From NCBI GenBank assembly GCA_002787695.1, contig PCXL01000011.1, positions 61,155-125,154 on the forward strand: a DNA stretch of 64,000 nt. Direction: 5' to 3'. This DNA comes from Candidatus Zambryskibacteria bacterium CG10_big_fil_rev_8_21_14_0_10_42_12. Its GTDB lineage: Bacteria > Patescibacteriota > Minisyncoccia > Phycocordibacterales > 1-14-0-10-42-12. The translations under genes were made by a program, and so were the position numbers. Below the pieces are notes generated by a model that saw only the letters and a program-made list of their open reading frames with translations, was not told the origin of the DNA and ran no database searches. Positions 1,916-38,974 of the stretch are shown one piece after another (the first letter of the stretch is position 1; each line of letters begins with the position of its first letter).

Positions 1916-2218
1916 TTACTTCTTTGATTTTCTGGAGAGTACAAATTTTTGCGAGGGGCTTGCCGGCTTGTCTCTGCGATGAATGCAGCCGGCCCAACAG
2001 CAGGGGCGACGCTTACCTTTGGCAAGGTCACTGACCGCGCGTTTTATATGCTGTGTGCGTGTTTCTGCTTTTTTGACCGATATTACCCAACAGATCCATT
2101 CATTTCGTGCGAGCGGTGTAATATCTTCCCATACCCTTTGTGCTTTTGCTGAAGCAGAAAGTGCTTTCTGGAGATCGGCAGGGAGTTTGTGAGCTACGCC
2201 ATCTGAGAGTTTAGGCAT
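1916..2218 (-). CDS. YdeI/OmpD-associated (OmdA, bacteriocin-protection) family protein
   Basis: 100 aa. PADLQKAL...NEWICWVISVKKAETRTQHIKRAVSDLAKGK matches the P-DL-AL...WI..AKK.ETR..RI...LA.GK pattern of this family. Confidence 0.6.
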   Translation of the reverse strand: MPKLSDGVAHKLPADLQKALSASAKAQRVWEDITPLARNEWICWVISVKKAETRTQHIKRAVSDLAKGKRRPCCWAGCIHRRDKPASPSQKFVLSRKSKK

Positions 2219-2336
2219 ATATTGATTTTAGCAAATATACAAGCCGTCTCGAGTTGGAACTGTGGGAGGCCTTGTCCAGCTTGGTGGATTCAACGACATT
2301 GTAAACTCAATTTGATAGTGTCTCGTGCGTAACTCT

Positions 2337-2693
2337 CTAGATGATAGTTTCAGGATTTATAATTGCTTTAGATGGCACACCTTTCTTTTTTAATTCTTCC
2401 ATAATGATTGATATGACAGACATTTGCATACTCATGCCCATTTCTTTTGTTTTTATAGCACCTTCTGTTTGTAATATTGAAAAAGTGAAGTCAGTGAGAT
2501 TATCCAAGTAAGATATACGTTCATTCATTACCTCTTTTGCTCCATTTGGATTAAATGTTGCATACCTAATTTTAAGCATCTCATTCATAACATCTTGGAT
2601 AGTTTTCTCAGAAGAACTTAGTTTAAGATAGTTTTTTGCTACCCATCGTGCGGTTGAGCCAGTAGCTCCAAATTTAAGGATGAATTTCAACAT
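2337..2693 (-). CDS. Hypothetical protein
   Basis: A 118-aa ORF with no recognisable motifs. The coding call rests on ORF length and composition only. Confidence 0.35.
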   Translation of the reverse strand: MLKFILKFGATGSTARWVAKNYLKLSSSEKTIQDVMNEMLKIRYATFNPNGAKEVMNERISYLDNLTDFTFSILQTEGAIKTKEMGMSMQMSVISIIMEELKKKGVPSKAIINPETII

Positions 2694-2731
2694 AATCTTA
2701 TTGTATCACTAGCATCTCATGCTATCTGTTA

Positions 2732-2770
2732 ATGCGGAGAGGGAGGGAATTTCTCCCTCGACTTAAAACT
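2732..2770 (-). repeat. Partial duplicate of the tRNA-Ser 3' end (T-stem plus acceptor 3' strand, T-loop altered)
   Basis: Plus-strand ATGCGGAGAGGGAGGGA at 2732-2748 is identical to 2912-2928 at the tRNA-Ser 3' end. The six-base T-loop is then different (AATTTC against TTCGAA), followed by the conserved CCCTCG. On the minus strand this gives GAGGG-AGAAATT-CCCTC-CCTCTCC-GCA preceded by a 14-bp-stem hairpin. Confidence 0.5.
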
Positions 2771-2865
2771 TTTTCGTCAAAAAGTTTTAGTCTGGGCACC
2801 GGCTCGCGTACAGGCACTACTGTGCCTGACTTCGTACGCTCCGCCGTTCGAATCCCACCTCATCC

Positions 2866-2898
2866 GTAAAACAAAAGTCGCCCGATGCTACGCATCGG
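2866..2898 (-). terminator. Rho-independent terminator 3' of tRNA-Ser
   Basis: Minus strand CCGATGCGTAGCATCGG (7-bp stem) followed by GCGACTTTTGTTTTA. Confidence 0.5.
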
Positions 2899-2914
2899 AC
2901 TCCTTTGTTTTATG

Positions 2915-3001
2915 CGGAGAGGGAGGGATTCGAACCCTCGGTACGGTTTCCCGTACACCGCGTTTCGAGTGCGGCACATTCGACCACTCTGTCACCTCTC
3001 C
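2915..3001 (-). tRNA. tRNA-Ser (anticodon CGA), type II with long variable arm
   Basis: Minus strand: GGAGAGGTGACAGAGTGGTCGAATGTGCCGCACTCGAAACGCGGTGTACGGGAAACCGTACCGAGGGTTCGAATCCCTCCCTCTCCG. It has anticodon loop CTCGAAA, variable-arm hairpin GTACGG-GAAA-CCGTAC, and T-arm GAGGG/CCCTC. Confidence 0.8.
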
Positions 3002-3070
3002 GTGCAATCTAGAACACTATCATATCTTTTGCATTTTTGGTCAAAAATGATATAGTTTCTGCCGTATTTT

Positions 3071-3142
3071 GGCCCTATCGTCTAACGGTTAGGACATCGG
3101 CTTTTCAAGCCGGTAATCGGGGTTCGATTCCCCGTAGGGTCA
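3071..3142 (+). tRNA. tRNA-Glu (anticodon TTC)
   Basis: GGCCCTATCGTCTAACGGTTAGGACATCGGCTTTTCAAGCCGGTAATCGGGGTTCGATTCCCCGTAGGGTCA. It has anticodon loop TTTTCAA and T-loop TTCGATT. Confidence 0.9.
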
Positions 3143-3200
3143 CATGAAAAATGAAGAGGCTCCCGCAAGGGAGCTTTTTCATGTGACCCTACGGGCAGAA
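3143..3200. terminator. Compound hairpin terminator after tRNA-Glu; its outer stem is an inverted copy of the tRNA 3' end
   Basis: GGGTCACATGAAAAA-TGAAGAG-GCTCCC-GCAA-GGGAGC-TTTTTCATGTGACCC. The inner 6-bp stem plus T-run is flanked by a 15-bp outer inverted repeat. Confidence 0.6.
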
Positions 3201-3330
3201 AGGGGTCGGGGAAACTGGGTGTTTCCCCGTGGAGGAAGGCAGTGAGTCCTCGAACGTTGGAAAACCGTGGGTTTCCAAGGTCTCGTAAGGGTCAATGAAA
3301 AATTATCTGTGACCGAAAGTGTATTCACGT

Positions 3331-3348
3331 TTCCCCGTAGGGTCACAT
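3331..3348 (+). repeat. 18-nt perfect direct repeat of the tRNA-Glu 3' end (TTCCCCGTAGGGTCACAT)
   Basis: Identical to 3128-3145. The two copies bracket a 185-bp hairpin-rich segment at 3146-3330. Confidence 0.8.
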
Positions 3349-28844: not shown

Positions 28845-30134
28845 ATGAACCGTTTTCAGATCATTCTCATCGCAGCCTTCGCCTTTTTTGCTGTGTTTGG
28901 TGTATTTCTGTTTGCAACGTTCCGAGGTGCAGGTGAAAACCAACAGATCTCTGTCACGATGTGGGGTACTCTGCCACAGGTTGATTTCTATAGCTGGTAT
29001 AGCAGTACACCACTTAGTAAAAATAATAATATTACGGTCACATATGTGTATAAGAATCCGGATACATTTGACCAAGATTTTGTTGAAGCGCTTGCAGACG
29101 GAAGAGGTCCAGATATCATCTTTTTGCCTCATGAGAAAATTTTAGAACACGGCAACAGGATCTATCCGATTCCGTACGATACCCTTTCAGAACGCAATTT
29201 CAGAGATTTGTTCGTTGAAGGGACAGAGATTTTTCTTGGACCAAATGGATCTTACGCACTTCCGATCATCATTGATCCTTTAGTTATGTATTGGAATCGA
29301 GATATATTCCGAAATGCAGGCATTGCACAAGTACCACAATATTGGGATGAATTTCCATCACTTGCGCTGAGCTTGGTAGAACGTGATTCACTCAAAAATA
29401 TTACGCAAAGCGCTGTTGCTCTTGGAGAATACGGCAATGTATATCGGGCACGAGATATTATCTCCGTATTACTCATGCAAGCCGGTACGCCTATTACGCA
29501 ACAATCTTCATTGGGTCTCCAGTCCGTGTTGGGTAGTACGTTTAATTTTGCAACTATGCCTGCAGATGCGGCACTGACGTTTTATACACAGTTTGCAAAT
29601 CCGGCAAAAGATATTTACTCATGGAATCGCTCATTTAATAATTCATTAAACATTTTTGCATCAGGCGATCTGGGAATCCTGTTTGCACGTTCGTCAGATT
29701 TGTTTGCAATTCAATCACGTAATCCAAATTTAAACTTTGACGTAGCTCTTCTTCCTCAACCGCGTGAAGCGACAAATAAAATGACATATGGATACATGGA
29801 AGGTTTGGCGCTTGTAAAGCAGTCGCAAAAACTCTCTGGCGCATATCGTGTGATACAAGAGCTTACTAGTAAAGAGTCGGTGACTGCACTATCAAACATA
29901 CTCAAACTGCCTCCTGTTCGCCGAGATGTGCTGGTGAGCCGTCCGTCGGATGCATATCTCTCTGTGTTCTACGAGAGTGCTTTAATCTCTCAGGCGTGGC
30001 TTTCGCCACATCCTGCTACCACTGATAGTATTTTTAGAGATATGGTGGAATCTATTACAAGTGGGCGGTTGCGAATGGGTGAAGCGATTCGTGCTGCGAG
30101 TGATGCACTTAATCGTGCGCTCGGACGCAACTAA
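28845..30134 (+). CDS. Extracellular solute-binding protein (ABC transporter SBP family 1-like), N-terminal TM anchor
   Basis: DIIFLPHEKI and LPIIIDPLVMYWNRDIF are typical of sugar-type SBPs. Confidence 0.65.
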   Translation: MNRFQIILIAAFAFFAVFGVFLFATFRGAGENQQISVTMWGTLPQVDFYSWYSSTPLSKNNNITVTYVYKNPDTFDQDFVEALADGRGPDIIFLPHEKILEHGNRIYPIPYDTLSERNFRDLFVEGTEIFLGPNGSYALPIIIDPLVMYWNRDIFRNAGIAQVPQYWDEFPSLALSLVERDSLKNITQSAVALGEYGNVYRARDIISVLLMQAGTPITQQSSLGLQSVLGSTFNFATMPADAALTFYTQFANPAKDIYSWNRSFNNSLNIFASGDLGILFARSSDLFAIQSRNPNLNFDVALLPQPREATNKMTYGYMEGLALVKQSQKLSGAYRVIQELTSKESVTALSNILKLPPVRRDVLVSRPSDAYLSVFYESALISQAWLSPHPATTDSIFRDMVESITSGRLRMGEAIRAASDALNRALGRN

Positions 30135-30138
30135 CAAT

Positions 30139-30519
30139 ATGAAATTTCTAAACATAGCAGTTACAACCCTTATCACCGCGTCTCCTCTTTTATTGTATGC
30201 TCAAGAACAAGACGCAATGAGAGGAGAGATAACCGATGAGCGCTGTGAAGGATTTAGCTGTGATTATGGTGATTTAATAAATCTCATACAGGATATTTTA
30301 TTGTTTATGTTGAAGCTTTCAATACCGATCGCAGCTATCGCCCTTGCGGTTGCTGGGTTCAAGATTTTGACAGCACGAGATTCAGTCACAGAACGTAGTG
30401 AAGCTAAAACCATGATGCTTAAAATAGTAGGTGGCGTTATGATTATGTTGGCAGCAGGACTGATTGTGAATACGATTGTTGGTGCGTTATTGCAAGGCGA
30501 CTTTAATTTTTTGGATTAA
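30139..30519 (+). CDS. Small 2-TM pilin-like protein (TrbC/VirB2-like), paralog 1 of 6
   Basis: Signal peptide MKFLNIAVTTLITASPLLLYAQ, then two TM helices with a charged loop. Confidence 0.5.
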   Translation: MKFLNIAVTTLITASPLLLYAQEQDAMRGEITDERCEGFSCDYGDLINLIQDILLFMLKLSIPIAAIALAVAGFKILTARDSVTERSEAKTMMLKIVGGVMIMLAAGLIVNTIVGALLQGDFNFLD

Positions 30520-30523
30520 CATT

Positions 30524-30973
30524 ATGAAATATATCTTCATTACCGTGATACAGGCTGTTTTCATAGGAATGTTTATGATATCCAGTGTAAGTTTTGCGGA
30601 AACAGGTATTGAACCGGGCACCCCTAGTGGAGGTGGTACAGGTATTGAACCGGGCACCCCAGGTGGCAGTCCTGCGTCCCATCAAATCAACTTTCAAAAC
30701 CCGCTCTCGCTTGGAGAAAATGCAACCATCTCAACATTTATTGAGTCAATCCTTAGAAATATTGTTGTTCCGATAGGAGCAGTCGTATCTGTGTTCTTTA
30801 TTATCTATGCAGGCTTCCTGTTTGTGACAGCGCGCGGAAGCGAAGACAAAGTGACAAAAGCAAAAACTGCACTCCTCAATGCGGTTATTGGTACAGTTAT
30901 TATTTTAGGATCATGGGTGATTGCCCAGGCAATTTCAGGCACTGTCTCACAACTAGGAGGCCCAACGTTATAA
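30524..30973 (+). CDS. Small 2-TM pilin-like protein, paralog 2 (Gly/Pro-rich GIEPGTP repeat insert)
   Basis: Signal peptide, duplicated TGIEPGTPxGG, then TM-loop-TM. Confidence 0.5.
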   Translation: MKYIFITVIQAVFIGMFMISSVSFAETGIEPGTPSGGGTGIEPGTPGGSPASHQINFQNPLSLGENATISTFIESILRNIVVPIGAVVSVFFIIYAGFLFVTARGSEDKVTKAKTALLNAVIGTVIILGSWVIAQAISGTVSQLGGPTL

Positions 30974-30980
30974 ACGTATT

Positions 30981-31319
30981 ATGAAAAAAATCGTCTTACT
31001 TTCTACACTTTTTGCACCTCACCTGCTATTTGCCCAACTAATTACATCAGACTTTAAAAGTTTTGTTACGAGCCTGGTGAATGCGTTTTTACCGACACTG
31101 TTGGGTATCATTGCTCTTATTTTGTTTTTGTATTTCGTCTGGCGTGTAGCACAGTTTATTTTGCATGCAGACAGTAAAGAAACACGTTCATCTGCGAGTC
31201 GAGTGTTTCTCTGGGGTATTCTCGCTCTGTTTGTTGCAGCATCACTTGTTGCCATAATTTCATTTTTACTGGGAGAGTTTGGTTTTGGCGTACCGGTTAT
31301 TCCTAAATTGCCACAATAA
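30981..31319 (+). CDS. Small 2-TM pilin-like protein, paralog 3
   Basis: Signal peptide MKKIVLLSTLFAPHLLFAQ and a VFLWGILALFVAASL core. Confidence 0.5.
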   Translation: MKKIVLLSTLFAPHLLFAQLITSDFKSFVTSLVNAFLPTLLGIIALILFLYFVWRVAQFILHADSKETRSSASRVFLWGILALFVAASLVAIISFLLGEFGFGVPVIPKLPQ

Positions 31320-31378
31320 CAGTGGGTTGTTGATAAATAGTAGTCATTTGAGCATTAAACATATTACAATTAAAAATT

Positions 31379-31753
31379 ATGAAAAAAAGTATATATATAA
31401 GTTTGCTAGCATTATCACCACTCATTGTATTGGCACAACCATCTAGTGGTTATTTAACACAATCACAAGGTTTATTGGATGGAGTTTTAAATACGATTAC
31501 ATTACTTATTGGTATTGCAATTGTGCTCGCGTTTCTATTTTTTGTGTGGGGTATTGCAGAATTTATCCGTAAGGCAGATGATGCTGGCAATAGAGCAGAA
31601 GGTCGCCAGAGAATGATCTGGGGTATTGTTGCGCTCGCTGTTCTTGCAACTGTCTGGGGTATTGTGAGATGGCTACAGATTGAACTTGGTCTTTCTGCAA
31701 ACGAAGCTGCGCCGGGAATATTCCAATTCTTCCAGCTTTGGAGTGGTAACTAA
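31379..31753 (+). CDS. Small 2-TM pilin-like protein, paralog 4
   Basis: Signal peptide, then AGNRAEGRQRMIWGIVALAVLATVWGIV. Confidence 0.55.
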   Translation: MKKSIYISLLALSPLIVLAQPSSGYLTQSQGLLDGVLNTITLLIGIAIVLAFLFFVWGIAEFIRKADDAGNRAEGRQRMIWGIVALAVLATVWGIVRWLQIELGLSANEAAPGIFQFFQLWSGN

Positions 31754-31838
31754 TCCACATTGTATCCTTGCCACTTCCGTAGTAGCATTGTCTCATAGGT
31801 GCTAAACGCCCTTAATTATAAAGTTTTATTTACTCAAA

Positions 31839-32189
31839 ATGAAAAAAGCAGTTATTACTTCTTTGATGCTTGGCGCAATGCCGTTTATTGCAAGTGCCCA
31901 GCTTGAAAACATTGAAGACATTGTTGTATCAATTGGTGATATTATCGACCTTTTGGTACCTATTGTGTTTGCACTCGCTATCCTCTATTTCTTCTGGGGA
32001 CTTGCACAATTTATCTTGGCTTCAGGAGACGAAACCGCACGTGCAGAAGGCCGCCAGAAGATGATCTGGGGTATTGTAGCAATTGCAGTAATGGCATCTA
32101 TCTGGGGACTTGTGTTCTTCTTGCAAGATGCTGTTGGTGTAAGTCGAGTAGACGCACCGTCTATCGATGTTATTCCGACTGTCAACTAA
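31839..32189 (+). CDS. Small 2-TM pilin-like protein, paralog 5
   Basis: Signal peptide, then ARAEGRQKMIWGIVAIAVMASIWGLV, almost the same motif as paralog 4. Confidence 0.55.
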   Translation: MKKAVITSLMLGAMPFIASAQLENIEDIVVSIGDIIDLLVPIVFALAILYFFWGLAQFILASGDETARAEGRQKMIWGIVAIAVMASIWGLVFFLQDAVGVSRVDAPSIDVIPTVN

Positions 32190-32209
32190 CGAGAGTGCTA
32201 TAAGATTCC

Positions 32210-32485
32210 ATGGATAGCTTCGGAACATTGCTTGGTAAGATAAACGAGTTCATTATCAATCCGATTATCTACGTCCTCTTTGCGGTTGCATTTATCTTCT
32301 TCTTTATCGGACTTATACAGGTTGTCAAAGGATCAAAAGAAGGTGGAGATGATTTTGCAAAAGGGAAGAGAAACATGCTCTATGGACTTATCGGATTTGT
32401 CGTGATGTTTGGAGTTTACGGCATTATCAACCTGCTCTTAGGAACATTTGGAATCGATACACCGGAATATCTGCAAGGGTTGTAG
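32210..32485 (+). CDS. Small 2-TM membrane protein related to the pilin-like array (no signal peptide)
   Basis: FAKGKRNMLYGLIGFVVMFGVYGI motif analogous to the paralogs. Confidence 0.45.
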   Translation: MDSFGTLLGKINEFIINPIIYVLFAVAFIFFFIGLIQVVKGSKEGGDDFAKGKRNMLYGLIGFVVMFGVYGIINLLLGTFGIDTPEYLQGL

Positions 32486-32507
32486 AAAAATAAGATTCAG
32501 ATAACGA

Positions 32508-32552
32508 AAGACCGCCTGACGGATCCCTTGCGGGACCGTCAGGCGGTTTTGG
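32508..32552. terminator. Bidirectional compound hairpin terminator
   Basis: ACCGCCTGACGG...CCGTCAGGCGGT plus TTTT, between the pilin array and the convergent minus-strand gene. Confidence 0.6.
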
Positions 32553-32566
32553 TTGTGGAGGCGACA

Positions 32567-34873
32567 TCAGTCTACCTCCGGAAACAGAACCCATAGTCGA
32601 TTGACATATGGCTCTGCATTTTCGGTCATGATCCGGATGGTCCTGAAATTACTTCGCAGGACAGTTCCGGACTGACCGACTCTAAACGGTTCTCCGCCGT
32701 CTAGAGAGATGAGAAGTCGATCATCAACCATCATCAGTCGCTCGAGATTTGTGTATTTCGAGCGCGCTATGATGCTGTCGACTTGCGCCTTACCGTTCTC
32801 CATACCGAGCCGTTCGAGCTCGGAGGAGACATAGGAGCGGAGCTCTTCGACAACATCTATCGTTTCTCCCCAGACGCCATTGCCTGGGGCGGCAAACATG
32901 ATTCCTCTTTTTCTTTGGAATCCCCCTGCTCGAGCTTTTGCCTCGAGCTTGTCGATTGTTCGTTGCCAAGGAGAAAAACTCCTCCCGGCAGCAACATAGA
33001 CGGCATGTGCCCAGCGTACGTGCTCCTCGATGTCATGCTCATACGGGTCAATGCCCATATTGCGAGCAATTCCACCATGGAACCCGGCGTTGACTTGGCA
33101 TAAGCCTATGTCTTCATTGTCCGAACCGCGCAAGATCGTGCCGTCGTCATTGTAGTGACGTAAGCCCGACTCTTCGCGACAAATGGCGAGCATCCACCGG
33201 ACTGCTTCCGGACCTTCGCTGTCGAAGACTTGTTGGATAATCGCCTCTGCTTGAGCGGCAGGTATGAGATTGTGCTGCTCAAGGGCTTGTTCAGTTTGTT
33301 TCGGAGCATCGTCAGATCCTCCAAACCAGTCCAACCAACCTCCTTTATTCTCAGAGCGCTCGAGCTGCTGCTTGTACTGCAGCCAGCGGATACCTTCCTC
33401 CGAGGTTAACGGTTTTCCTGGAACTCCAATTCTCGAAGAACCAGGATTGTTGGCAACGCACGCATAGACGTGCACCATCCACCAATCTCCGTCTTCACCT
33501 GTAGGAGACGTATCTCCCTCAGGGCGACAGTACAGGGCAACCCCCTCTTTTGTGAAGAGGATATTGTCCTCAAAATCCTGCCTCATCTGCTTTGCCGTAT
33601 GGATTACTCCAGGAAGCGAAGTGATAAAGGAGGGAGTGAGAATGGTGAGTACCGTTCCCACAGTGGCTAGTGATGCCAGTGTGGTAAACCATGAACCTAC
33701 AACGCGAGAACCGGTTATCCGGTGGTACACTCCGTTAAAGGTCAGAATAGCGATACCGACCGCCATTATGGTGTGAAGTGTCGAGTGGTCTTTGAGCGGT
33801 AAGTGTGCAAGCATTCCGCTCATGAGACCAACGACCATCAGAAATCCGAGAACGGCCCAATACTTCTGCCGTGCGGGTTTGAAACCCATGAGGCGAAGCA
33901 TGAGTGCTCCTATTCCGAAGAGGAGCACGAGGGGGATTGCATACATAAGCAATTGCCCCAAAATAGATTCCGCTCCACTACCACTCACAACGAGTCCTAG
34001 TGCCAATTTATACCCAAAGTATACGATAAGCGCAGGACCCACGATGAAGATGATGATGGAGAAAGCGAAAACGGTGCATGCCAAGTACCACAGTGCTCGG
34101 GCAACTCTGTCTGCAGGTGCTTCTTCCTGCATCACAAACGGCACTGGGCCGTTTGGCGTGAACACGGGAACCATTCTCCCAGAACCGGCCATTCGTCCGA
34201 GTGACGCTAATCCGGGTCGTCGAGCGATTAAGCTCTCTGCGAACCGGGTGAATTTTTGCCAGCGAGTGGCTTGGTAGAGGAACTCGAGCTGGGACGTAAC
34301 CCACGCATCGTATTCTTGTACCGTTTCACCCTCTTTCATCTTCCGAAAAATACGCCGGAAGATGTTTACGAAAAGCTTTACCGGATCTCCAGCAGAAATC
34401 CAGGTAATGGTTCCATCGGGATTGCGTGTTGCCACGTCAAACCCATTTTTGGCCGCACGCCACGCCTGGCCGATCGCGTTCTCGCGATCGTCGGATGGGT
34501 TGCGGTGGAAATAGTCTTGGGCACGTGTCCAGCCGCTCTTGAGTTGATCGGCCAGGATCATCTTGGCTTCCTTGGCGTATTCGCCGCGGAAGGTTTTGAT
34601 GACGATATTGGCGATGACTTCGGCGGCTTTGTCAGGGTCGCCCCCGAAGCCGCCAACCACCTTTTTCCCCACGCTGATGATGATGTCGTACAGGACTTCA
34701 TCTTTCACCGCAGAGAACATGCCTTTTGCTGCGGATTTGATATTCCGCAGTATGTTTCGTAACATTTCTTCTCTCCTTGGCGCGAGATGCGCCGATACTC
34801 TAGATTGTGATAGACCTAAGTCCTCATATATTATAACAAAAAATGGTGAATTGTCAATGTAATTATTTGACAA
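32567..34873 (-). CDS. Polytopic membrane protein with C-terminal SLT-type lytic transglycosylase domain (VirB1-like activity on a VirB6-like multi-TM body?)
   Basis: Central block of five or more TM helices. C-terminal AICREESGLRHYN...DIGLCQVN...Y gives the SLT catalytic Glu-Ser, GLxQ and Tyr motifs. GC about 52-55%. Confidence 0.65.
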   Translation of the reverse strand: MSNNYIDNSPFFVIIYEDLGLSQSRVSAHLAPRREEMLRNILRNIKSAAKGMFSAVKDEVLYDIIISVGKKVVGGFGGDPDKAAEVIANIVIKTFRGEYAKEAKMILADQLKSGWTRAQDYFHRNPSDDRENAIGQAWRAAKNGFDVATRNPDGTITWISAGDPVKLFVNIFRRIFRKMKEGETVQEYDAWVTSQLEFLYQATRWQKFTRFAESLIARRPGLASLGRMAGSGRMVPVFTPNGPVPFVMQEEAPADRVARALWYLACTVFAFSIIIFIVGPALIVYFGYKLALGLVVSGSGAESILGQLLMYAIPLVLLFGIGALMLRLMGFKPARQKYWAVLGFLMVVGLMSGMLAHLPLKDHSTLHTIMAVGIAILTFNGVYHRITGSRVVGSWFTTLASLATVGTVLTILTPSFITSLPGVIHTAKQMRQDFEDNILFTKEGVALYCRPEGDTSPTGEDGDWWMVHVYACVANNPGSSRIGVPGKPLTSEEGIRWLQYKQQLERSENKGGWLDWFGGSDDAPKQTEQALEQHNLIPAAQAEAIIQQVFDSEGPEAVRWMLAICREESGLRHYNDDGTILRGSDNEDIGLCQVNAGFHGGIARNMGIDPYEHDIEEHVRWAHAVYVAAGRSFSPWQRTIDKLEAKARAGGFQRKRGIMFAAPGNGVWGETIDVVEELRSYVSSELERLGMENGKAQVDSIIARSKYTNLERLMMVDDRLLISLDGGEPFRVGQSGTVLRSNFRTIRIMTENAEPYVNRLWVLFPEVD

Positions 34874-34970
34874 ATAACTTAAATTATGATAATAAAGTGC
34901 TAGAACGGCTCTCTAAAGCCATTCGACCTTTTACATAGAGAATGTGGGTGAGGCCCACAGGGAGAAAATG

Positions 34971-36341
34971 ATGAGGAAACTTATCGTATTGGCGAGCGTG
35001 CTCGCCATGATGTGCACGATGCTGGCTTCGGGCCAGACGTTGTTCGAGGGTGTCATTCAGACGAACGACAACCGCGAGGAGGTCGTCAAAATCACGGAGC
35101 AACCAGCGGTGCAGCCGCAGAAGCAAATCCAGGCTGTTGCGCCACAGGCGCAGCAGATCGAAGAGACTCAGGTGGCGGCACCTGTCGATCAGTCGGCGGT
35201 GACTCCTGAACCGACTGCGCCGGCTCAGGATGTCGCGGTTCAGACAGGCATACCTGACAACCCGACAAGCGAGTGGTTGGTCGAGTACATGCTCGGTGGT
35301 CTCTACTGGATAGTCAGAGCCGCATCAGATCTGACATTCTGGCAGATTTTGCTCATTATCCTGGCTGTATTGGCGGTAGCGGGGTTAGGGTATGGATGGT
35401 CGCAATTTCCGCACCCAGTAGCAGATCTGAAATCAAGAATGCGATCGGTATGGCGCAAGTTGCGGGTAGTGTTCGGTGATCATAAGTATCACCGTACCGA
35501 AACTTCCGGCGGACCGTATCGTAAACTGACGCTACTCGAGGATGTATTACGCCAAGGTTCAAAGTCAGGACCTCAACTGGTCTTGTTCTTGGGACTTTAC
35601 GCTGGTGTAGCGTCGGCGGCAGTGCTGACCAACGAGCCTGTGCTTCACCCACAAAACATCGAGCCGGTTGCCGTTGTTGAGAACACGACGTCGACTGTCA
35701 CGATCAGTTGCACGGCGAACATGTCGTGCAACAAGGTGAAGTCTGCGCGACTGGGTACGTCTGACCACGTGTCTGTAACTGCAACATCCAAAGACAAACT
35801 GGTGTTGCAGGTGAAAACTGGTCCTCGTTCGCACATTCAGGAGGACCGTATCGTTCTCCACTACGGTGATGGGGTGGAAAGGCGAATCGCCGGATTCTTC
35901 ACGCTGCCACGTCAGGCAGCTGAGACGATCGAATTCATGATGCGGTTGCATCCTGGTGAGCAGGAGGCTGGAGGTGCACACAGTGCAATCACTGCGGTCC
36001 TCCAAGCTGAGATCGACCGGATCGACCAGCACAAAGTTGACCCGCTCCGTGAGGAGGTAGAGAAACTCAAAGCTCGTGTCCAAGAAAACGAGCAACGAGT
36101 CAGGACAAATACCGGTCTCATGGCCGAGGTGCGCGACGAAGTCGTTGCTCTTCGTGACAGGGTCGGCGAGACAGAAGAGCGACTCGGCAAGCTCGAGCAC
36201 ACCGAGCGCTCACAGGTACTCTACGCCTGTGCCGGTTTCGGCACACGGCAAGAAAATGGCGCCGCACTTGCTGCGGTTGCCAAACGAGAAGGGAAGACAC
36301 CGAAGCAAGTCTGCGAAGACATGCAAACGGATCCTTTCTGA
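34971..36341 (+). CDS. Hypothetical exported/membrane protein with Gln/Pro-rich linker and C-terminal coiled coil (GC-rich)
   Basis: Signal-like N-terminus MMRKLIVLASVLAMMCTML, an internal TM segment ILLIILAVLAVAGLGYGW, and a C-terminal heptad-rich EEVEKLKARVQENEQRV... About 58% GC. Confidence 0.5.
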   Translation: MRKLIVLASVLAMMCTMLASGQTLFEGVIQTNDNREEVVKITEQPAVQPQKQIQAVAPQAQQIEETQVAAPVDQSAVTPEPTAPAQDVAVQTGIPDNPTSEWLVEYMLGGLYWIVRAASDLTFWQILLIILAVLAVAGLGYGWSQFPHPVADLKSRMRSVWRKLRVVFGDHKYHRTETSGGPYRKLTLLEDVLRQGSKSGPQLVLFLGLYAGVASAAVLTNEPVLHPQNIEPVAVVENTTSTVTISCTANMSCNKVKSARLGTSDHVSVTATSKDKLVLQVKTGPRSHIQEDRIVLHYGDGVERRIAGFFTLPRQAAETIEFMMRLHPGEQEAGGAHSAITAVLQAEIDRIDQHKVDPLREEVEKLKARVQENEQRVRTNTGLMAEVRDEVVALRDRVGETEERLGKLEHTERSQVLYACAGFGTRQENGAALAAVAKREGKTPKQVCEDMQTDPF

Positions 36342-36496
36342 TCTGATCAGTTTCCAAATCCAGACCGAGTAGTACCACGTTGTACTGCTCGGCCTGTTTT
36401 AATTTCGAAAAATGTTTAAAATTAGCCATAAAAATGCTCATGGTATTATTAATAAGGAACACAGCTCTGCAATATATATAGGTATAGGAGGCTCAC

Positions 36497-37156
36497 ATGC
36501 GGAAAGGGGTAGTACTGGTTATCTTGTTGTCTCTTGTCGCAACCATTGTTTTTGGATGGTTGTGGTGGAAGACGACCAAGGTCACGCAGGAAGTCGACAG
36601 AGAGATACGTAGGTTGAGAGAGGATATACAACAATCGGAACAGGAATCACGTATAGAAGCTTTTGTCTCGTCGCAGACACAGGCTTTGACGGAAGCACAC
36701 ACGACCGATATGCGTGGACTGCGACAAGAGTTGGCTCAGAATCGACAAGAACTAGAGCGGATAGTGAAGGAGGTGGAAACTCAGAAGGCACTGATTGCCG
36801 AGCGCACTACTCGACAGGAAGTCCAAAAGGAAATAGACGCAAGAGCGAGTATCTTGGCAGATCGTCTCAAGCAGCTCGCTATACGTGTGCTCGATCTCAG
36901 TCGTCGTGTGCAAGAAAATCTGCAACTTGCTCTTGAAGCCAAAGGTGCTTTGGCGGAATTGCAAGACCATGTGCGACGTATAAAACAGGTGACCGATGAC
37001 AACACGCATGAGATACAGGAATTAAATCAAATGCATACATACCGGATTCGGACTGCCTGTGTGCTTGGATACAGCAATGATCCGGATCTTGTGCTGCGTG
37101 CGGAGCGTGTTCGCCTGTCACCTGCGGAGTTTTGTGAACAATTTTTGTCGCAATAG
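36497..37156 (+). CDS. Hypothetical membrane-anchored coiled-coil protein (GC-rich)
   Basis: N-terminal TM VVLVILLSLVATIVFGWLWW followed by about 150 aa of coiled-coil-like sequence. Confidence 0.5.
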   Translation: MRKGVVLVILLSLVATIVFGWLWWKTTKVTQEVDREIRRLREDIQQSEQESRIEAFVSSQTQALTEAHTTDMRGLRQELAQNRQELERIVKEVETQKALIAERTTRQEVQKEIDARASILADRLKQLAIRVLDLSRRVQENLQLALEAKGALAELQDHVRRIKQVTDDNTHEIQELNQMHTYRIRTACVLGYSNDPDLVLRAERVRLSPAEFCEQFLSQ

Positions 37157-37339
37157 CGACTTTCGTCGAGGAGAAGCGCTCCTCGACGAGTTTTTAATGT
37201 TTGTCAAAAAAGCAAAAATAAGCATACAATAGGGACTGCTTGTCCGGGTGATGGAATCCCAAGTAGCAAAGCGAAGCTTACTACGGGACGGGTTGGTAAC
37301 ATAGGAAAAATTACTGAGTGTTGTTTAATAATTTGGAAT

Positions 37340-37421
37340 GCCCGGGTGGCGGAACTGGTATACGCGCACGACTTAAAATCGTGTTCCGAAAGGGGTGCGG
37401 GTTCGATTCCCGCCCCGGGCA
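37340..37421 (+). tRNA. tRNA-Leu (anticodon TAA), type II
   Basis: GCCCGGGTGGCGGAACTGGTATACGCGCACGACTTAAAATCGTGTTCCGAAAGGGGTGCGGGTTCGATTCCCGCCCCGGGCA. Confidence 0.85.
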
Positions 37422-37610
37422 CAAGAATAAAAGAACTGGGCACGAATGTGTCTCGTGATTTTTATTCTCGCCTCGGGCGGGAATCGAAAGCCGGAGCGCG
37501 CGAAGCCGACCGTAGGTCGTGTGCGAGGCGGGGTCGCGACCTCCGTCGTGAAGATTTACCCAGCACTTATAACATAAGTGCTGGGTTTATCGAAACAGGA
37601 GAGTTGTGAC

Positions 37611-37628
37611 CGATTCCCGCCCCGGGCA
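37611..37628 (+). repeat. 18-nt direct repeat of the tRNA-Leu(TAA) 3' end (CGATTCCCGCCCCGGGCA)
   Basis: Identical to 37404-37421. The 190-bp segment between them contains hairpins and a partial inverted copy of the T-arm (GCGGGAATCGAA). Confidence 0.8.
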
Positions 37629-37677
37629 TCATATAAAAAGGAAATGCCCTCGCGGATGCGAGGGGCTTTATGGGGGA

Positions 37678-37851
37678 CTATGCAGCGTTGGCTGTCTCTC
37701 GGGCCAAAATAAGTTTTGGCCCGACTGGCTTGAGTTCACCACGTTTACCTATTTCAACATGGGTGAAATTTGCGAGCGTGATTAGGGCTCCTGGATTCAT
37801 GGCGACCAGGACGTCAATGACATCGTTAACAGGATAGACGCCAGGTTTCAT
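37678..37851 (-). CDS. Small hypothetical protein (57 aa) with its own hairpin terminator
   Basis: MKPGVYPVNDVIDVLVAMNPGALITLANFTHVEIGKRGELKPVGPKLILARETANAA. The stop is followed on the minus strand by GCCCCTCGCATCCGCGAGGGC plus a T-run. Confidence 0.3.
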   Translation of the reverse strand: MKPGVYPVNDVIDVLVAMNPGALITLANFTHVEIGKRGELKPVGPKLILARETANAA

Positions 37852-37988
37852 TTATATTGTTACTCCATACGAAAGATCGGGCCGAGAGTATTTTTATCAT
37901 ATCCTCGTATATATGCAACATAACGCATTCATGCATGCTTCATATGTAGACTGGGGGCGTCCTTTTTGTTATATTTCTTTTGTTTTAA

Positions 37989-38061
37989 CCGCCCATAGCT
38001 CAGTTGGTAGAGCAGTCGCCTCTTAAGCGAACGGTCGTAGGTTCGAATCCTACTGGGCGGA
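37989..38061 (+). tRNA. tRNA-Lys (anticodon CTT)
   Basis: CCGCCCATAGCTCAGTTGGTAGAGCAGTCGCCTCTTAAGCGAACGGTCGTAGGTTCGAATCCTACTGGGCGGA. It has anticodon loop CTCTTAA and an unusual C1:G72. Confidence 0.75.
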
Positions 38062-38076
38062 TGTAATTTAACTCTC

Positions 38077-38784
38077 GTGCTAATGTTTTTTATATTAATA
38101 TATGGTATACGCTATATGCCTTACAATATTAAATACTACAAAACATATCAGTGGAGTAAAAAGTTGGCATATATAATTGGACTTATTGCAACAGATGGAA
38201 GTCTGTCTGTTGACGAGCGTCATATTGATTTTACATCTAAAGATTTAGAGCTTATCAAAATTTTTAAAGATTGTCTGAAACTTTCAAATAAAATAGGTAT
38301 TAAGAAGAGCGGCACAAACAGAGTTTGTTTTTGTATACAATTTGGTAACAAGAATTTTTACAACTTTCTAAATTCTATAGGGATTTATAAGGCTAAATCC
38401 AAAACTATAAAAAGGATTGATATACCTAATAAATATTTTCCACATTTTTTACGTGGCTGTTTGGATGGCGATGGTAATATTGATTTATACAAACATGCAC
38501 AAAGTCAATATATGCAAATTAGATTTAGATTTGCATCTGCGAGTAAACCATTTCTAGAATGGATATTACAGGTATTAAAAATAAAATATAGTATTGAAGG
38601 AGGTTGGATTTATAGTCAAAAAAATAAATCAACCCATGTTTTAGTCTTTGGTAAGACAGACACTTTGAAAATTGGAAAAATCATGTATCATGACCATGCG
38701 AACTTATGCTTACAAAGGAAGTTTGCAAAATATAAACAATGGGCAAGTGGCGGAATTGGTATACGCGCTAGTCTTAGGAACTAG
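38077..38784 (+). CDS. LAGLIDADG homing endonuclease (double-motif), AT-rich; 3' end overlaps tRNA-Leu(TAG) by about 44 nt
   Basis: Two LAGLIDADG motifs, LAYIIGLIATDGSLS and FLRGCLDGDGNID. About 28% GC. It lies between tRNA-Lys and tRNA-Leu(TAG). Confidence 0.8.
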   Translation: MLMFFILIYGIRYMPYNIKYYKTYQWSKKLAYIIGLIATDGSLSVDERHIDFTSKDLELIKIFKDCLKLSNKIGIKKSGTNRVCFCIQFGNKNFYNFLNSIGIYKAKSKTIKRIDIPNKYFPHFLRGCLDGDGNIDLYKHAQSQYMQIRFRFASASKPFLEWILQVLKIKYSIEGGWIYSQKNKSTHVLVFGKTDTLKIGKIMYHDHANLCLQRKFAKYKQWASGGIGIRASLRN

Positions 38785-38822
38785 TGCCGCAAGGCTTGGG
38801 AGTTCGAGTCTCCCCTTGCCCA
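38741..38822 (+). tRNA. tRNA-Leu (anticodon TAG), type II
   Basis: GGGCAAGTGGCGGAATTGGTATACGCGCTAGTCTTAGGAACTAGTGCCGCAAGGCTTGGGAGTTCGAGTCTCCCCTTGCCCA. Confidence 0.85.
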
Positions 38823-38950
38823 CAGTGAGTTTTCGAACGAGGACAAGGACTAGCTTGTGATAACAAGCGTTAGTCTGACTCGAAGCCTGTTTGAGATATT
38901 TTGTGAGCTGGCGAAACAAAATATCCAAACACGGGTACTGAACCTGTAAG

Positions 38951-38974
38951 GTTCGAGTCTCCCCTTGCCCACAG
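38951..38974 (+). repeat. 24-nt direct repeat of the tRNA-Leu(TAG) 3' end (GTTCGAGTCTCCCCTTGCCCACAG)
   Basis: Identical to 38802-38825. The intervening 125 bp contains the hairpin GATATTTTGT...ACAAAATATC and a partial anticodon/T-arm-like stretch. Confidence 0.8.

Follow-up and report, generated by a model that had tools for sequence, protein, structure and literature searches.

The 18-nt direct repeat that begins in a tRNA-Leu(UAA) gene was shown to consist of two copies of the tRNA 3′ end flanking a structured element of about 190 nt (189 bp) without an open reading frame (ORF). The gene lies in a 64,000-nt stretch of contig PCXL01000011.1 of Candidatus Zambryskibacteria bacterium CG10_big_fil_rev_8_21_14_0_10_42_12 (hereafter, the window). 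The element is a member of a large and widespread family of ORF-less elements of about 110–190 nt in Patescibacteria (candidate phyla radiation, CPR), which we call type A and which is apparently undescribed so far. We put at roughly one half the probability that it is a miniature element that was inserted between positions 55 and 56 of the tRNA, with duplication or regeneration of the tRNA 3′ end, and that structural constraint now maintains as part of the tRNA transcript.

The tRNA-Leu(UAA) gene (37340 to 37421/22, + strand; ARAGORN; Rfam tRNA model, 61.6 bits) does not encode CCA. The 18-nt repeat CGATTCCCGCCCCGGGCA of the original prediction was found in exact copies at 37404–37421 and 37611–37628. 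Dinucleotide shuffles gave 0.02 expected matches to it, and none of 100 shuffles reached three. The first copy (X1, 37404–37421, +) runs from C56 in the T-loop to the discriminator A73 of the tRNA. The second copy (X2, 37611–37628, +) repeats nt 56–73 and forms the 3′ strand of a helix, P1; it is a displaced or duplicated tRNA 3′ fragment. Between the two copies, on the same strand, lie a hairpin with a U-rich 3′ side (37425–37467), a segment antisense to nt 54–72 of the tRNA (X′, 37470–37488) and a three-way-junction core of type A (37489–37610). The hairpin is equivalent to the family hairpin P0 described below, although it is atypical in lacking the CUGC loop of most family members. The T-loop/T-stem portion of X′ pairs at 10 of 10 positions, and its mismatches are in the acceptor portion. 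No ORF was found inside the 189-nt insert.

The partial inverted T-arm copy and the hairpins that had been named earlier for the enclosed segment were also present. The inverted copy of the 18-mer is at 37469–37486, with three mismatches. The hairpins are GAATAAAA...TTTTATTC at 37425–37467 and CCCAGCACTTAT-AAC-ATAAGTGCTGGG at 37559–37585, and the latter is the tip of an unusually long P3 hairpin, hp2. In the core, the junction AG is followed by helix P2 (CC/GG, GGAGCG at 37493–37498, hairpin hp1 at 37499–37522 and GCGAGGCGGGG at 37523–37533), and the junction CGGG by helix P3 (GUCGC at 37533–37537 with GUGAC at 37606–37610, enclosing hp2 at 37540–37603). The predicted fold of the 225 nt from 37404 to 37628 had −123.5 kcal/mol on the + strand (z = −10.0) and was weaker on the − strand (−102.3 kcal/mol, z = −6.7). 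The covariance model of the family, CM R1, matched 37473–37624, 51 nt past tRNA-Leu(UAA), with 58 bits (E 2e-15). The insert is thus of type A as we define it: a match to CM R1, with a three-way junction whose P2 and P3 covary, on the same strand as a tRNA or tmRNA gene and at most 130 nt 3′ of it.

A k-mer scan of all ten tRNAs in the window revealed such inserts at four of them, with at least three core types. The three further 3′-end copies lie 125–185 nt past the end of the tRNA gene, and their repeats begin in or beside the T-loop. The tRNA-Ser(CGA) insert (2732–2928, −; X1 2912–2928, X2 2732–2748, 17-nt repeat) shares core sequence with the tRNA-Leu(UAA) insert: its core is a diverged type A, matched by the model at 2741–2862 (−) with 34 bits (E 9e-8). 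The tRNA-Glu insert (3125–3348, +) consists of X1 (3125–3145), a terminator hairpin, X′ (3180–3195) and X2 (3328–3348), with 18 nt of the repeat exact, and has a third core type. The tRNA-Leu(UAG) insert (38802–38974, +) has a 24-nt exact repeat (38802–38825 and 38951–38974), a 125-nt core that we call type B and an antisense segment X′b, GACTCGAA, at 38877–38884. The type B module, CCUU..GAGAU-hairpin-AUCCAAA..GGUGUACWGAWYCUGUAAGRWUC, is at 38890–38950 of the window and was also found nested in a type A element at about 515 (−) of locus L067 (L numbers denote loci). This nesting suggests that the cores are modular.

A different flavour of tRNA-flank insert is present past tRNA-Val(GAC) at 1100–1210 (−). 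There, two copies of a 16-nt direct repeat, GGCGTTGGCAGGCGGG, about 87 nt apart, flank a tRNA-like fragment that has a D-arm and anticodon-like hairpins but was not called by ARAGORN.

Across the family, type A elements lie directly 3′ of tRNA or tmRNA genes, invariably in tRNA-sense orientation and in many cases separating tRNAs of the same operon, with the layout X1, P0, X′, three-way-junction core and X2. The pattern GGAGCG-N15-45-GCGAGNCGGGGYYGCGA had at least 120 matches in metagenome contigs. Among the matches listed, 64 were within 130 nt 3′ of a same-strand tRNA, and these tRNAs were of 18 isotypes; the others followed tmRNA genes (L044, L050, L116 and L123) or lay at contig ends. CM R1 detected 121 type A copies in the loci examined. 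In these loci, which were selected for having an element, 84 of 189 tRNAs carried one. A search with IF-2 brought up about 25 loci from Paceibacteria/Parcubacteria MAGs (45–54% identity). Most of these relatives have a compact Cys-Leu(UAA)-Lys-Leu(UAG) cluster with spacers of 3–150 nt. Inserts were found at tRNA-Tyr in L001, at tRNA-Cys in L019 (two in tandem), at tRNA-Leu(UAG) in L029, and at tRNA-Cys, tRNA-Trp and tRNA-Tyr in L005.

Two boundaries predominated. Among the matches listed, the sequence directly after the core began with CGA or CAA, corresponding to C56 of the T-loop copy, in 52 of 96 (T-loop class), and with CAC, GAC or CAT, corresponding to about nt 72 in the acceptor end or to the trailer, in 28 of 96 (acceptor-end class). 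An exact direct repeat of 10 nt or more was present in 36 of the 64 tRNA-linked copies, and an inverted copy in 34. X2 often included 3–6 nt of gene-specific trailer, which implies copying at the level of DNA or of a precursor.

In L054, L056 and L150 (also in L039, L062, L063 and L146), X2 was followed by a CCA that the gene does not encode. Such CCA looks enriched over chance but is too rare to prove an RNA-derived origin. A retro-origin from mature tRNA was rejected because CCA follows X2 in few copies and most carry gene-specific trailer.

An alignment of 38 copies (A1) supported the three-way junction. X′ and X form P1, which is followed by the junction AAAG. P2 is made up of S-C/G-S′ pairs, a GGA/GA internal loop, GCG/CGC, an AU bulge and a variable hairpin, and is followed by the junction CGGG. 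P3 contains GYYGC/GURRC, in which one pair is G·U, as well as a GA step, a variable hairpin that carries tandem G·A pairs, and a bulged A; X comes directly after P3. In A1, 82.6% of the cells were paired, compared with 63% in shuffles and 31–43% with the partners slid. In the alignment of the copies found with CM R1, the corresponding values were 85.4%, 59.7% and 33–50%, and 40 of 41 pairs showed compensatory changes. G·U exceeded A·C by 52 to 18, and one G·U pair was kept in 104 of 117 copies. These G·U biases indicate that the fold belongs to the tRNA-sense strand.

In the family as a whole, X′ is antisense to nt 54–65 of the tRNA, sometimes further, and is able to pair with X1 or X2. In 27 of 35 copies it was complementary to the T-loop and the 3′ strand of the T-stem at 9 or more of 10 positions. 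A complement of the acceptor strand was present in only 3–7 of 35 (8/8 in only three), which is the chance level. This restriction to the T-loop and T-stem would suit a mimic of a recombination site and not a mimic of a full tRNA; a full tRNA minihelix of the t-element kind was rejected on the same ground. X2 had decayed in about 20–30% of the copies. Where X2 had diverged, X′ still matched X1 in 10–11 of 11 informative cases.

A P0 hairpin with a CUGC loop followed 46 of the 84 element-bearing tRNAs but only 5 of 105 others. This specificity for element-bearing tRNAs led us to reject the view of P0 as just the normal terminator of a tRNA gene. P0 does have the form of a canonical terminator, with a U-run, in the acceptor-end class, but usually not in the T-loop class.

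Three predicted folds were compared for the tRNA-Leu(UAA) element. The processed trailer (37423–37632) folded into P0 and the junction closed by X′:X2. The segment from C56 of X1 to GUGAC formed this junction too, but with X1:X′ as the closing helix and with the two ends of the segment side by side. In the minimum free energy (MFE) fold of the whole tRNA-plus-element transcript, X1 paired with X′, and the 5′ acceptor strand of the tRNA paired with X2. According to these folds, the RNA would have two near-equivalent topological isomers.

Known families did not account for the element. Rfam 15 returned only tRNA, tmRNA and RNase P for the window and for the canonical copies L041, L054 and L118, at the gathering score and at E up to 1–10; the type A motif is missing from Rfam. 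The Intron_gpI and group II models gave no match at E up to 10 and the tRNA is contiguous, so the insert is not a group I intron. When ORFs within 4 kb of 90 loci were clustered all-vs-all, there was no recurrent neighbour, only scattered housekeeping genes at no more than six of the 90 loci, and no recombinase, transposase or reverse transcriptase (RT) was consistently near these loci. The strict pattern had no match in IMG/VR, and BLASTN found no type A copies among the phages and plasmids of INPHARED and PLSDB. A looser pattern gave 120 matches in IMG/VR, which were all dismissed as chance matches in GC-rich phages because they lacked the hairpins and the GAAAG/YYGCGA context. Three other candidates were rejected as well: TIGR arrays, whose unit architecture is unrelated; a derivative of a MITE or insertion sequence, since the repeats are tRNA-derived and locus-specific and non-tandem copies are mostly 30–66% identical; and a retron ncRNA, which would share the closing inverted repeat and variable hairpin but for which no RT or conserved neighbour was found. 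Full-text literature searches gave no description of such elements, the nearest being group I introns in anticodon loops (PMC13011429).

In tandem arrays (L080 and L094) the units are identical, which points to unequal crossover. Non-tandem copies in one contig are mostly 30–66% identical, with L005 (89%) and L041 (78%) as exceptions, and the median between genomes is 45%. Most copies within a contig are as diverged as those between genomes, so there is no sign of recent transposition bursts. Orthologous tRNA-Lys copies persist in L009/L015 and in L003/L029 with compensatory substitutions. Those of L009 and L015 are about 94% identical as judged by eye, compared with 77% by BLASTN for the surrounding 16 kb. 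L007 and L011, from genomes that are 82–84% identical with tRNAs that are 98.5% identical, differ in the insert that follows their shared tRNA-Lys. The search for an allele with an empty site gave none, and other assemblies of the same strain were 100% identical.

A 1.2-kb JGI contig, L154, is 99.9% identical to 2151–3143 of the window. In its positions 1–220 it diverges within the 3′ strand of the tRNA-Glu acceptor and runs into tRNA-Val without the Glu element. A strain variant that lacks the insert and a chimeric assembly are the two possible explanations.

An insertion at 55/56 could have taken the following course. The element would have entered the tRNA gene in the T-loop, with a second class entering at the acceptor end, and would have regenerated or duplicated the tRNA 3′ end in the manner of tDNA-integrating islands, but lacking an integrase and having only about 1% of the size of such islands. 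The X1-P0-X′ hairpin and the junction may bring the two ends of the element together and present a duplex copy of the target. IMEX of the CTX-phage type provide a precedent, in which a folded single-stranded attP hairpin is recombined by the host XerCD. Their order of target copy, loop, inverted imperfect copy, body and target copy (X, loop, X′, body, X) is found here too, and in both cases the element encodes no integrase. The topology a-X-loop-X′-body-X-b would be the expected product of a CTX-phage-like integration of a folded single strand with a recombinase acting in trans. Unlike these elements, type A targets tRNA or tmRNA genes and not dif, and it is 0.2 kb of non-coding DNA and not a phage; the single-stranded form and the recombinase are purely inferred. 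Once resident, the element would be co-transcribed with the tRNA, and the tRNA would be freed by normal processing. X′ would be sequestered in P1 with X2, closing the junction. Mutations that unfold the element would release X′ to invade the T-arm of the tRNA. Such disruption of the tRNA would keep each copy under structural selection, as an intron must stay splicing-competent.

Many of the observations favour such an insertion. The architecture recurs at four of the ten tRNAs in the window and in relatives, with at least 120 pattern matches, at 18 isotypes and at tmRNA genes. X2 starts exactly at C56 (52 of 96) or at about nt 72 or the trailer (28 of 96) among the matches listed, and often carries trailer nucleotides. 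The compensatory changes (40 of 41 pairs), the strand-specific G·U pairs, the association of CUGC-loop P0 with element-bearing tRNAs and the limitation of X′ to the T-loop and T-stem add to this. X′ matches X1 where X2 has decayed, as expected if X2 is the displaced fragment. L007 and L011 differ in their inserts at one tRNA-Lys, tandem arrays have identical units, and the closed form from X1 to GUGAC folds as predicted, with juxtaposed ends. On the other side, the loci have no consistent neighbour gene for a recombinase, transposase or RT, the phage and plasmid collections hold no copies, within-contig copies are mostly diverged with no sign of recent bursts, and no empty site was recovered, L154 being ambiguous. 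X′ is specific to each tRNA, and we know of no insertion mechanism that automatically creates a tRNA-specific X′. In the acceptor-end class, the canonical terminator lies upstream of the core, which argues against strong co-transcription there. Finally, a host function would explain equally well why orthologous copies are retained, acquire compensatory changes and diverge less rapidly than the sequence around them.

Such a function is the main rival, and we regard it as possible, at odds of about one to two. The element would then be a cis-acting RNA that benefits the host, a structured domain in the spacer or 3′ trailer of the tRNA precursor. X′ and the identical X copies would form a conformational switch or a processing module: either the tRNA is folded and X′:X2 closes the junction, or X1 pairs with X′ and the 5′ strand of the tRNA pairs with X2. 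The junction would bind a protein or small molecule, tuning tRNA maturation or yielding a stable spacer RNA. The strong covariation, the strand-specific fold and the constant tRNA-sense orientation, often between tRNAs of one operon, agree with this. Copies within a genome are old and diverged but structurally intact, orthologues persist with compensatory changes, and no mobility gene and no phage or plasmid copy is associated with them. Both alternative pairings are present in the MFE fold of the entire transcript, and complementarity of X′b to the tRNA is retained. However, only some tRNAs have the element (four of ten here), and it is absent from many relatives with compact tRNA clusters. 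At one and the same site, close relatives can have different core types, X2 has decayed in about 20–30% of the copies, and a canonical terminator precedes the core in the acceptor-end class. The starts at C56 and at the acceptor end match the sublocations that integrases reportedly use in tRNA genes (described by Williams in 2002) and not a known logic of RNA processing. To our knowledge, no ligand or protein partner of the element is known, which also counts against a host RNA.

We consider it unlikely that the element is a T-loop intron-like RNA. In that case the sequence from C56 of X1 to GUGAC would be an insertion between nt 55 and 56 of a tRNA that is completed by X2, X′ would be a guide pairing with the 3′ exon, and movement would be by reverse splicing and then reverse transcription; X1 would make splicing dispensable. 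The precise 55/56 boundary, the ends juxtaposed at the junction, the MFE pairing of the tRNA 5′ strand with X2, and the CCA not encoded by the gene after some X2 (L054, L056, L150 and others) would agree with this. Group I introns are common in the anticodon loop of Patescibacteria tRNA genes and are known in the T-loop of tmRNA in other bacteria (PMC13011429). Type A resembles them as a structured ORF-less RNA in tRNA or tmRNA genes of the same phylum, with structural constraint and limited horizontal transfer. Group I introns, however, are located within the anticodon loop (or, in tmRNA, the T-loop) and depend on splicing, whereas at type A elements the tRNA is intact without splicing, and there was no match to Intron_gpI or to group II models at E up to 10. 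The core of about 100 nt is far below the size of known self-splicing ribozymes, and most X2 have gene-specific trailer and not CCA. Group II introns, and hence their RTs, are reported to be absent from Patescibacteria (PMC13011429).

The GC-rich zone next to this tRNA is real, with GC of 0.49–0.56 over 32500–38000 and about 0.42 outside. It includes a lineage-specific island (32567–37156) with the ORFan genes p768, p465 and p219, which adjoins the element and is not part of it. GC3 was 0.48–0.61 in the island ORFs and 0.33–0.38 in the flanking housekeeping genes. None of the three genes had a homologue in the syntenic loci of more than 20 relatives, and p768 matched only itself among 5.8 billion proteins. 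The expectation that the repeat does not delimit the island held: no tRNA-derived copy is at the 32.5-kb edge, and in 32.3–32.8 kb there was no copy of the repeat at up to three mismatches and no 9-mer or longer match to the 3′ end of any tRNA of the cluster.

More than 10 relatives share the order SBP-p165-p112-p124-p116-p91-[slot]-tRNA cluster-rbfA-infB. The slot, which separates p91 from the tRNA cluster, measures between 50 nt (L011) and 4.1 kb (L003), contains unrelated membrane or low-complexity ORFs, and is 3′ of tRNA-Leu(UAG) in most of these relatives. The Leu(UAA)-Lys-Leu(UAG) block has the opposite orientation in the window, which places the island against the 5′ side of tRNA-Leu(UAA). 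On these grounds, and with no tRNA-derived repeat at its far edge, we take the island to be an acquisition that is specific to this lineage, occupies a hypervariable slot and is unconnected with the 18-nt repeat. The original prediction of a tRNA-linked island was therefore right about an att-like repeat and a foreign-looking island, but the island is 5′ of the tRNA and is not a classical island at a tRNA 3′ end. Likewise, the repeat is an att-like duplicate of the tRNA end, but that it bounds a member of a conserved family of structured elements, recurring at tRNA-Leu(UAG), tRNA-Glu and tRNA-Ser, had been missed.

On the other side of the island, a solute-binding protein gene and five tandem paralogous genes for small membrane proteins (p165, p112, p124, p116 and p91) occupy 28845–32485 (+). 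This whole arrangement, which stops at the hypervariable slot, has syntenic counterparts in more than 10 Paceibacteria relatives. Between X2 and tRNA-Lys is a 57-aa ORF (37678–37851, −) with an island-like GC of 0.49, so the GC-rich zone extends to both sides of tRNA-Leu(UAA).

In tDNA islands, the tRNA gene is regenerated and a displaced 3′ fragment is left as a direct repeat (Islander, PMC4383910). The present insert has an intact tRNA and an 18/18-nt repeat of its 3′ fragment, but no tyrosine or serine integrase inside its 189 nt. Like tDNA islands and prophages with tyrosine-integrase att sites, type A targets the 3′ part of tRNA or tmRNA genes with a repeat from the T-loop or the acceptor end. 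Unlike both, it is 110–190 bp and not kilobases long, has no integrase or ORF, and has an antisense target copy and a three-way junction; it is also absent from the phage and plasmid collections searched. That the repeat is the scar of an integrase-borne island or prophage (attL and attR after an internal deletion), or the border of the GC-rich island, is largely refuted and very improbable: the repeat of the tRNA 3′ end from the T-loop on, the foreign-looking island nearby and the principle of a regenerated target with a displaced fragment (PMC4383910) speak for it, but the insert is one of more than 120 similarly sized members of a conserved structured family, whose compact architecture recurs at many tRNAs, it holds no remnant of an integrase, and the island lies on the 5′ side of the tRNA with no repeat at its far edge.

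Type A can also be compared with small structured sequences of other kinds. Plant-mitochondrial t-elements, mascRNA and tmRNA-like sequences are tRNA mimics. As in these mimics, the 3′ segment of type A equals the 3′ strands of a tRNA T-stem and acceptor with the discriminator and could be read by tRNA-processing enzymes. Unlike in these, the acceptor-stem complement is usually lacking, and the T-loop is replaced by a large junction. MITEs, REP/BIME repeats and integron attC sites are likewise small, non-coding and hairpin-rich, and attC shares a strand-specific structure. In type A, however, the repeats derive from the target, copies are not near-identical, and the sites are exclusively 3′ ends of tRNA or tmRNA genes.

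The genomes of Patescibacteria are tiny and streamlined, yet a large share of the tRNA genes in the examined loci carries folded inserts. If type A is mobile, it would be a minimal tRNA-targeting element without a gene of its own, a new handle on the recognition of tDNA sites, and it might serve as a compact insertion system that can be programmed. As a host RNA, it would instead be a new abundant class of structured RNA tied to the maturation of tRNA and tmRNA, in a phylum with very few known regulators. We suggest, quite tentatively, one of two things: a class of ORF-less elements of about 0.1–0.2 kb whose RNA or single-stranded DNA fold targets and repairs tRNA and tmRNA genes at 55/56, or a riboregulator in tRNA precursors that gates tRNA folding through antisense and decoy copies of the 3′ end. 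Either might be a third and hitherto unrecognised route, besides introns and islands, for structured nucleic acids in tRNA genes of ultra-small bacteria. Duplications of tRNA ends such as these could be misread as att sites by island-finding tools.

Two further observations concern the neighbourhood of tRNA genes. L146 (11.8 kb) contains about 35 tRNA genes, an RNase P RNA gene and two type A elements, and may represent a tRNA array, either in a CPR genome or in a mobile element. In the window, a free-standing ORF like a LAGLIDADG_3 homing endonuclease (38077–38784, +; Pfam E 1.8e-13; GC 30%, GC3 25%) lies between tRNA-Lys and tRNA-Leu(UAG), extending over the start of tRNA-Leu(UAG). In L001, a homologue with 30% identity is found between rbfA and tRNA-Cys, and several relatives have a type A element at the position of this ORF.
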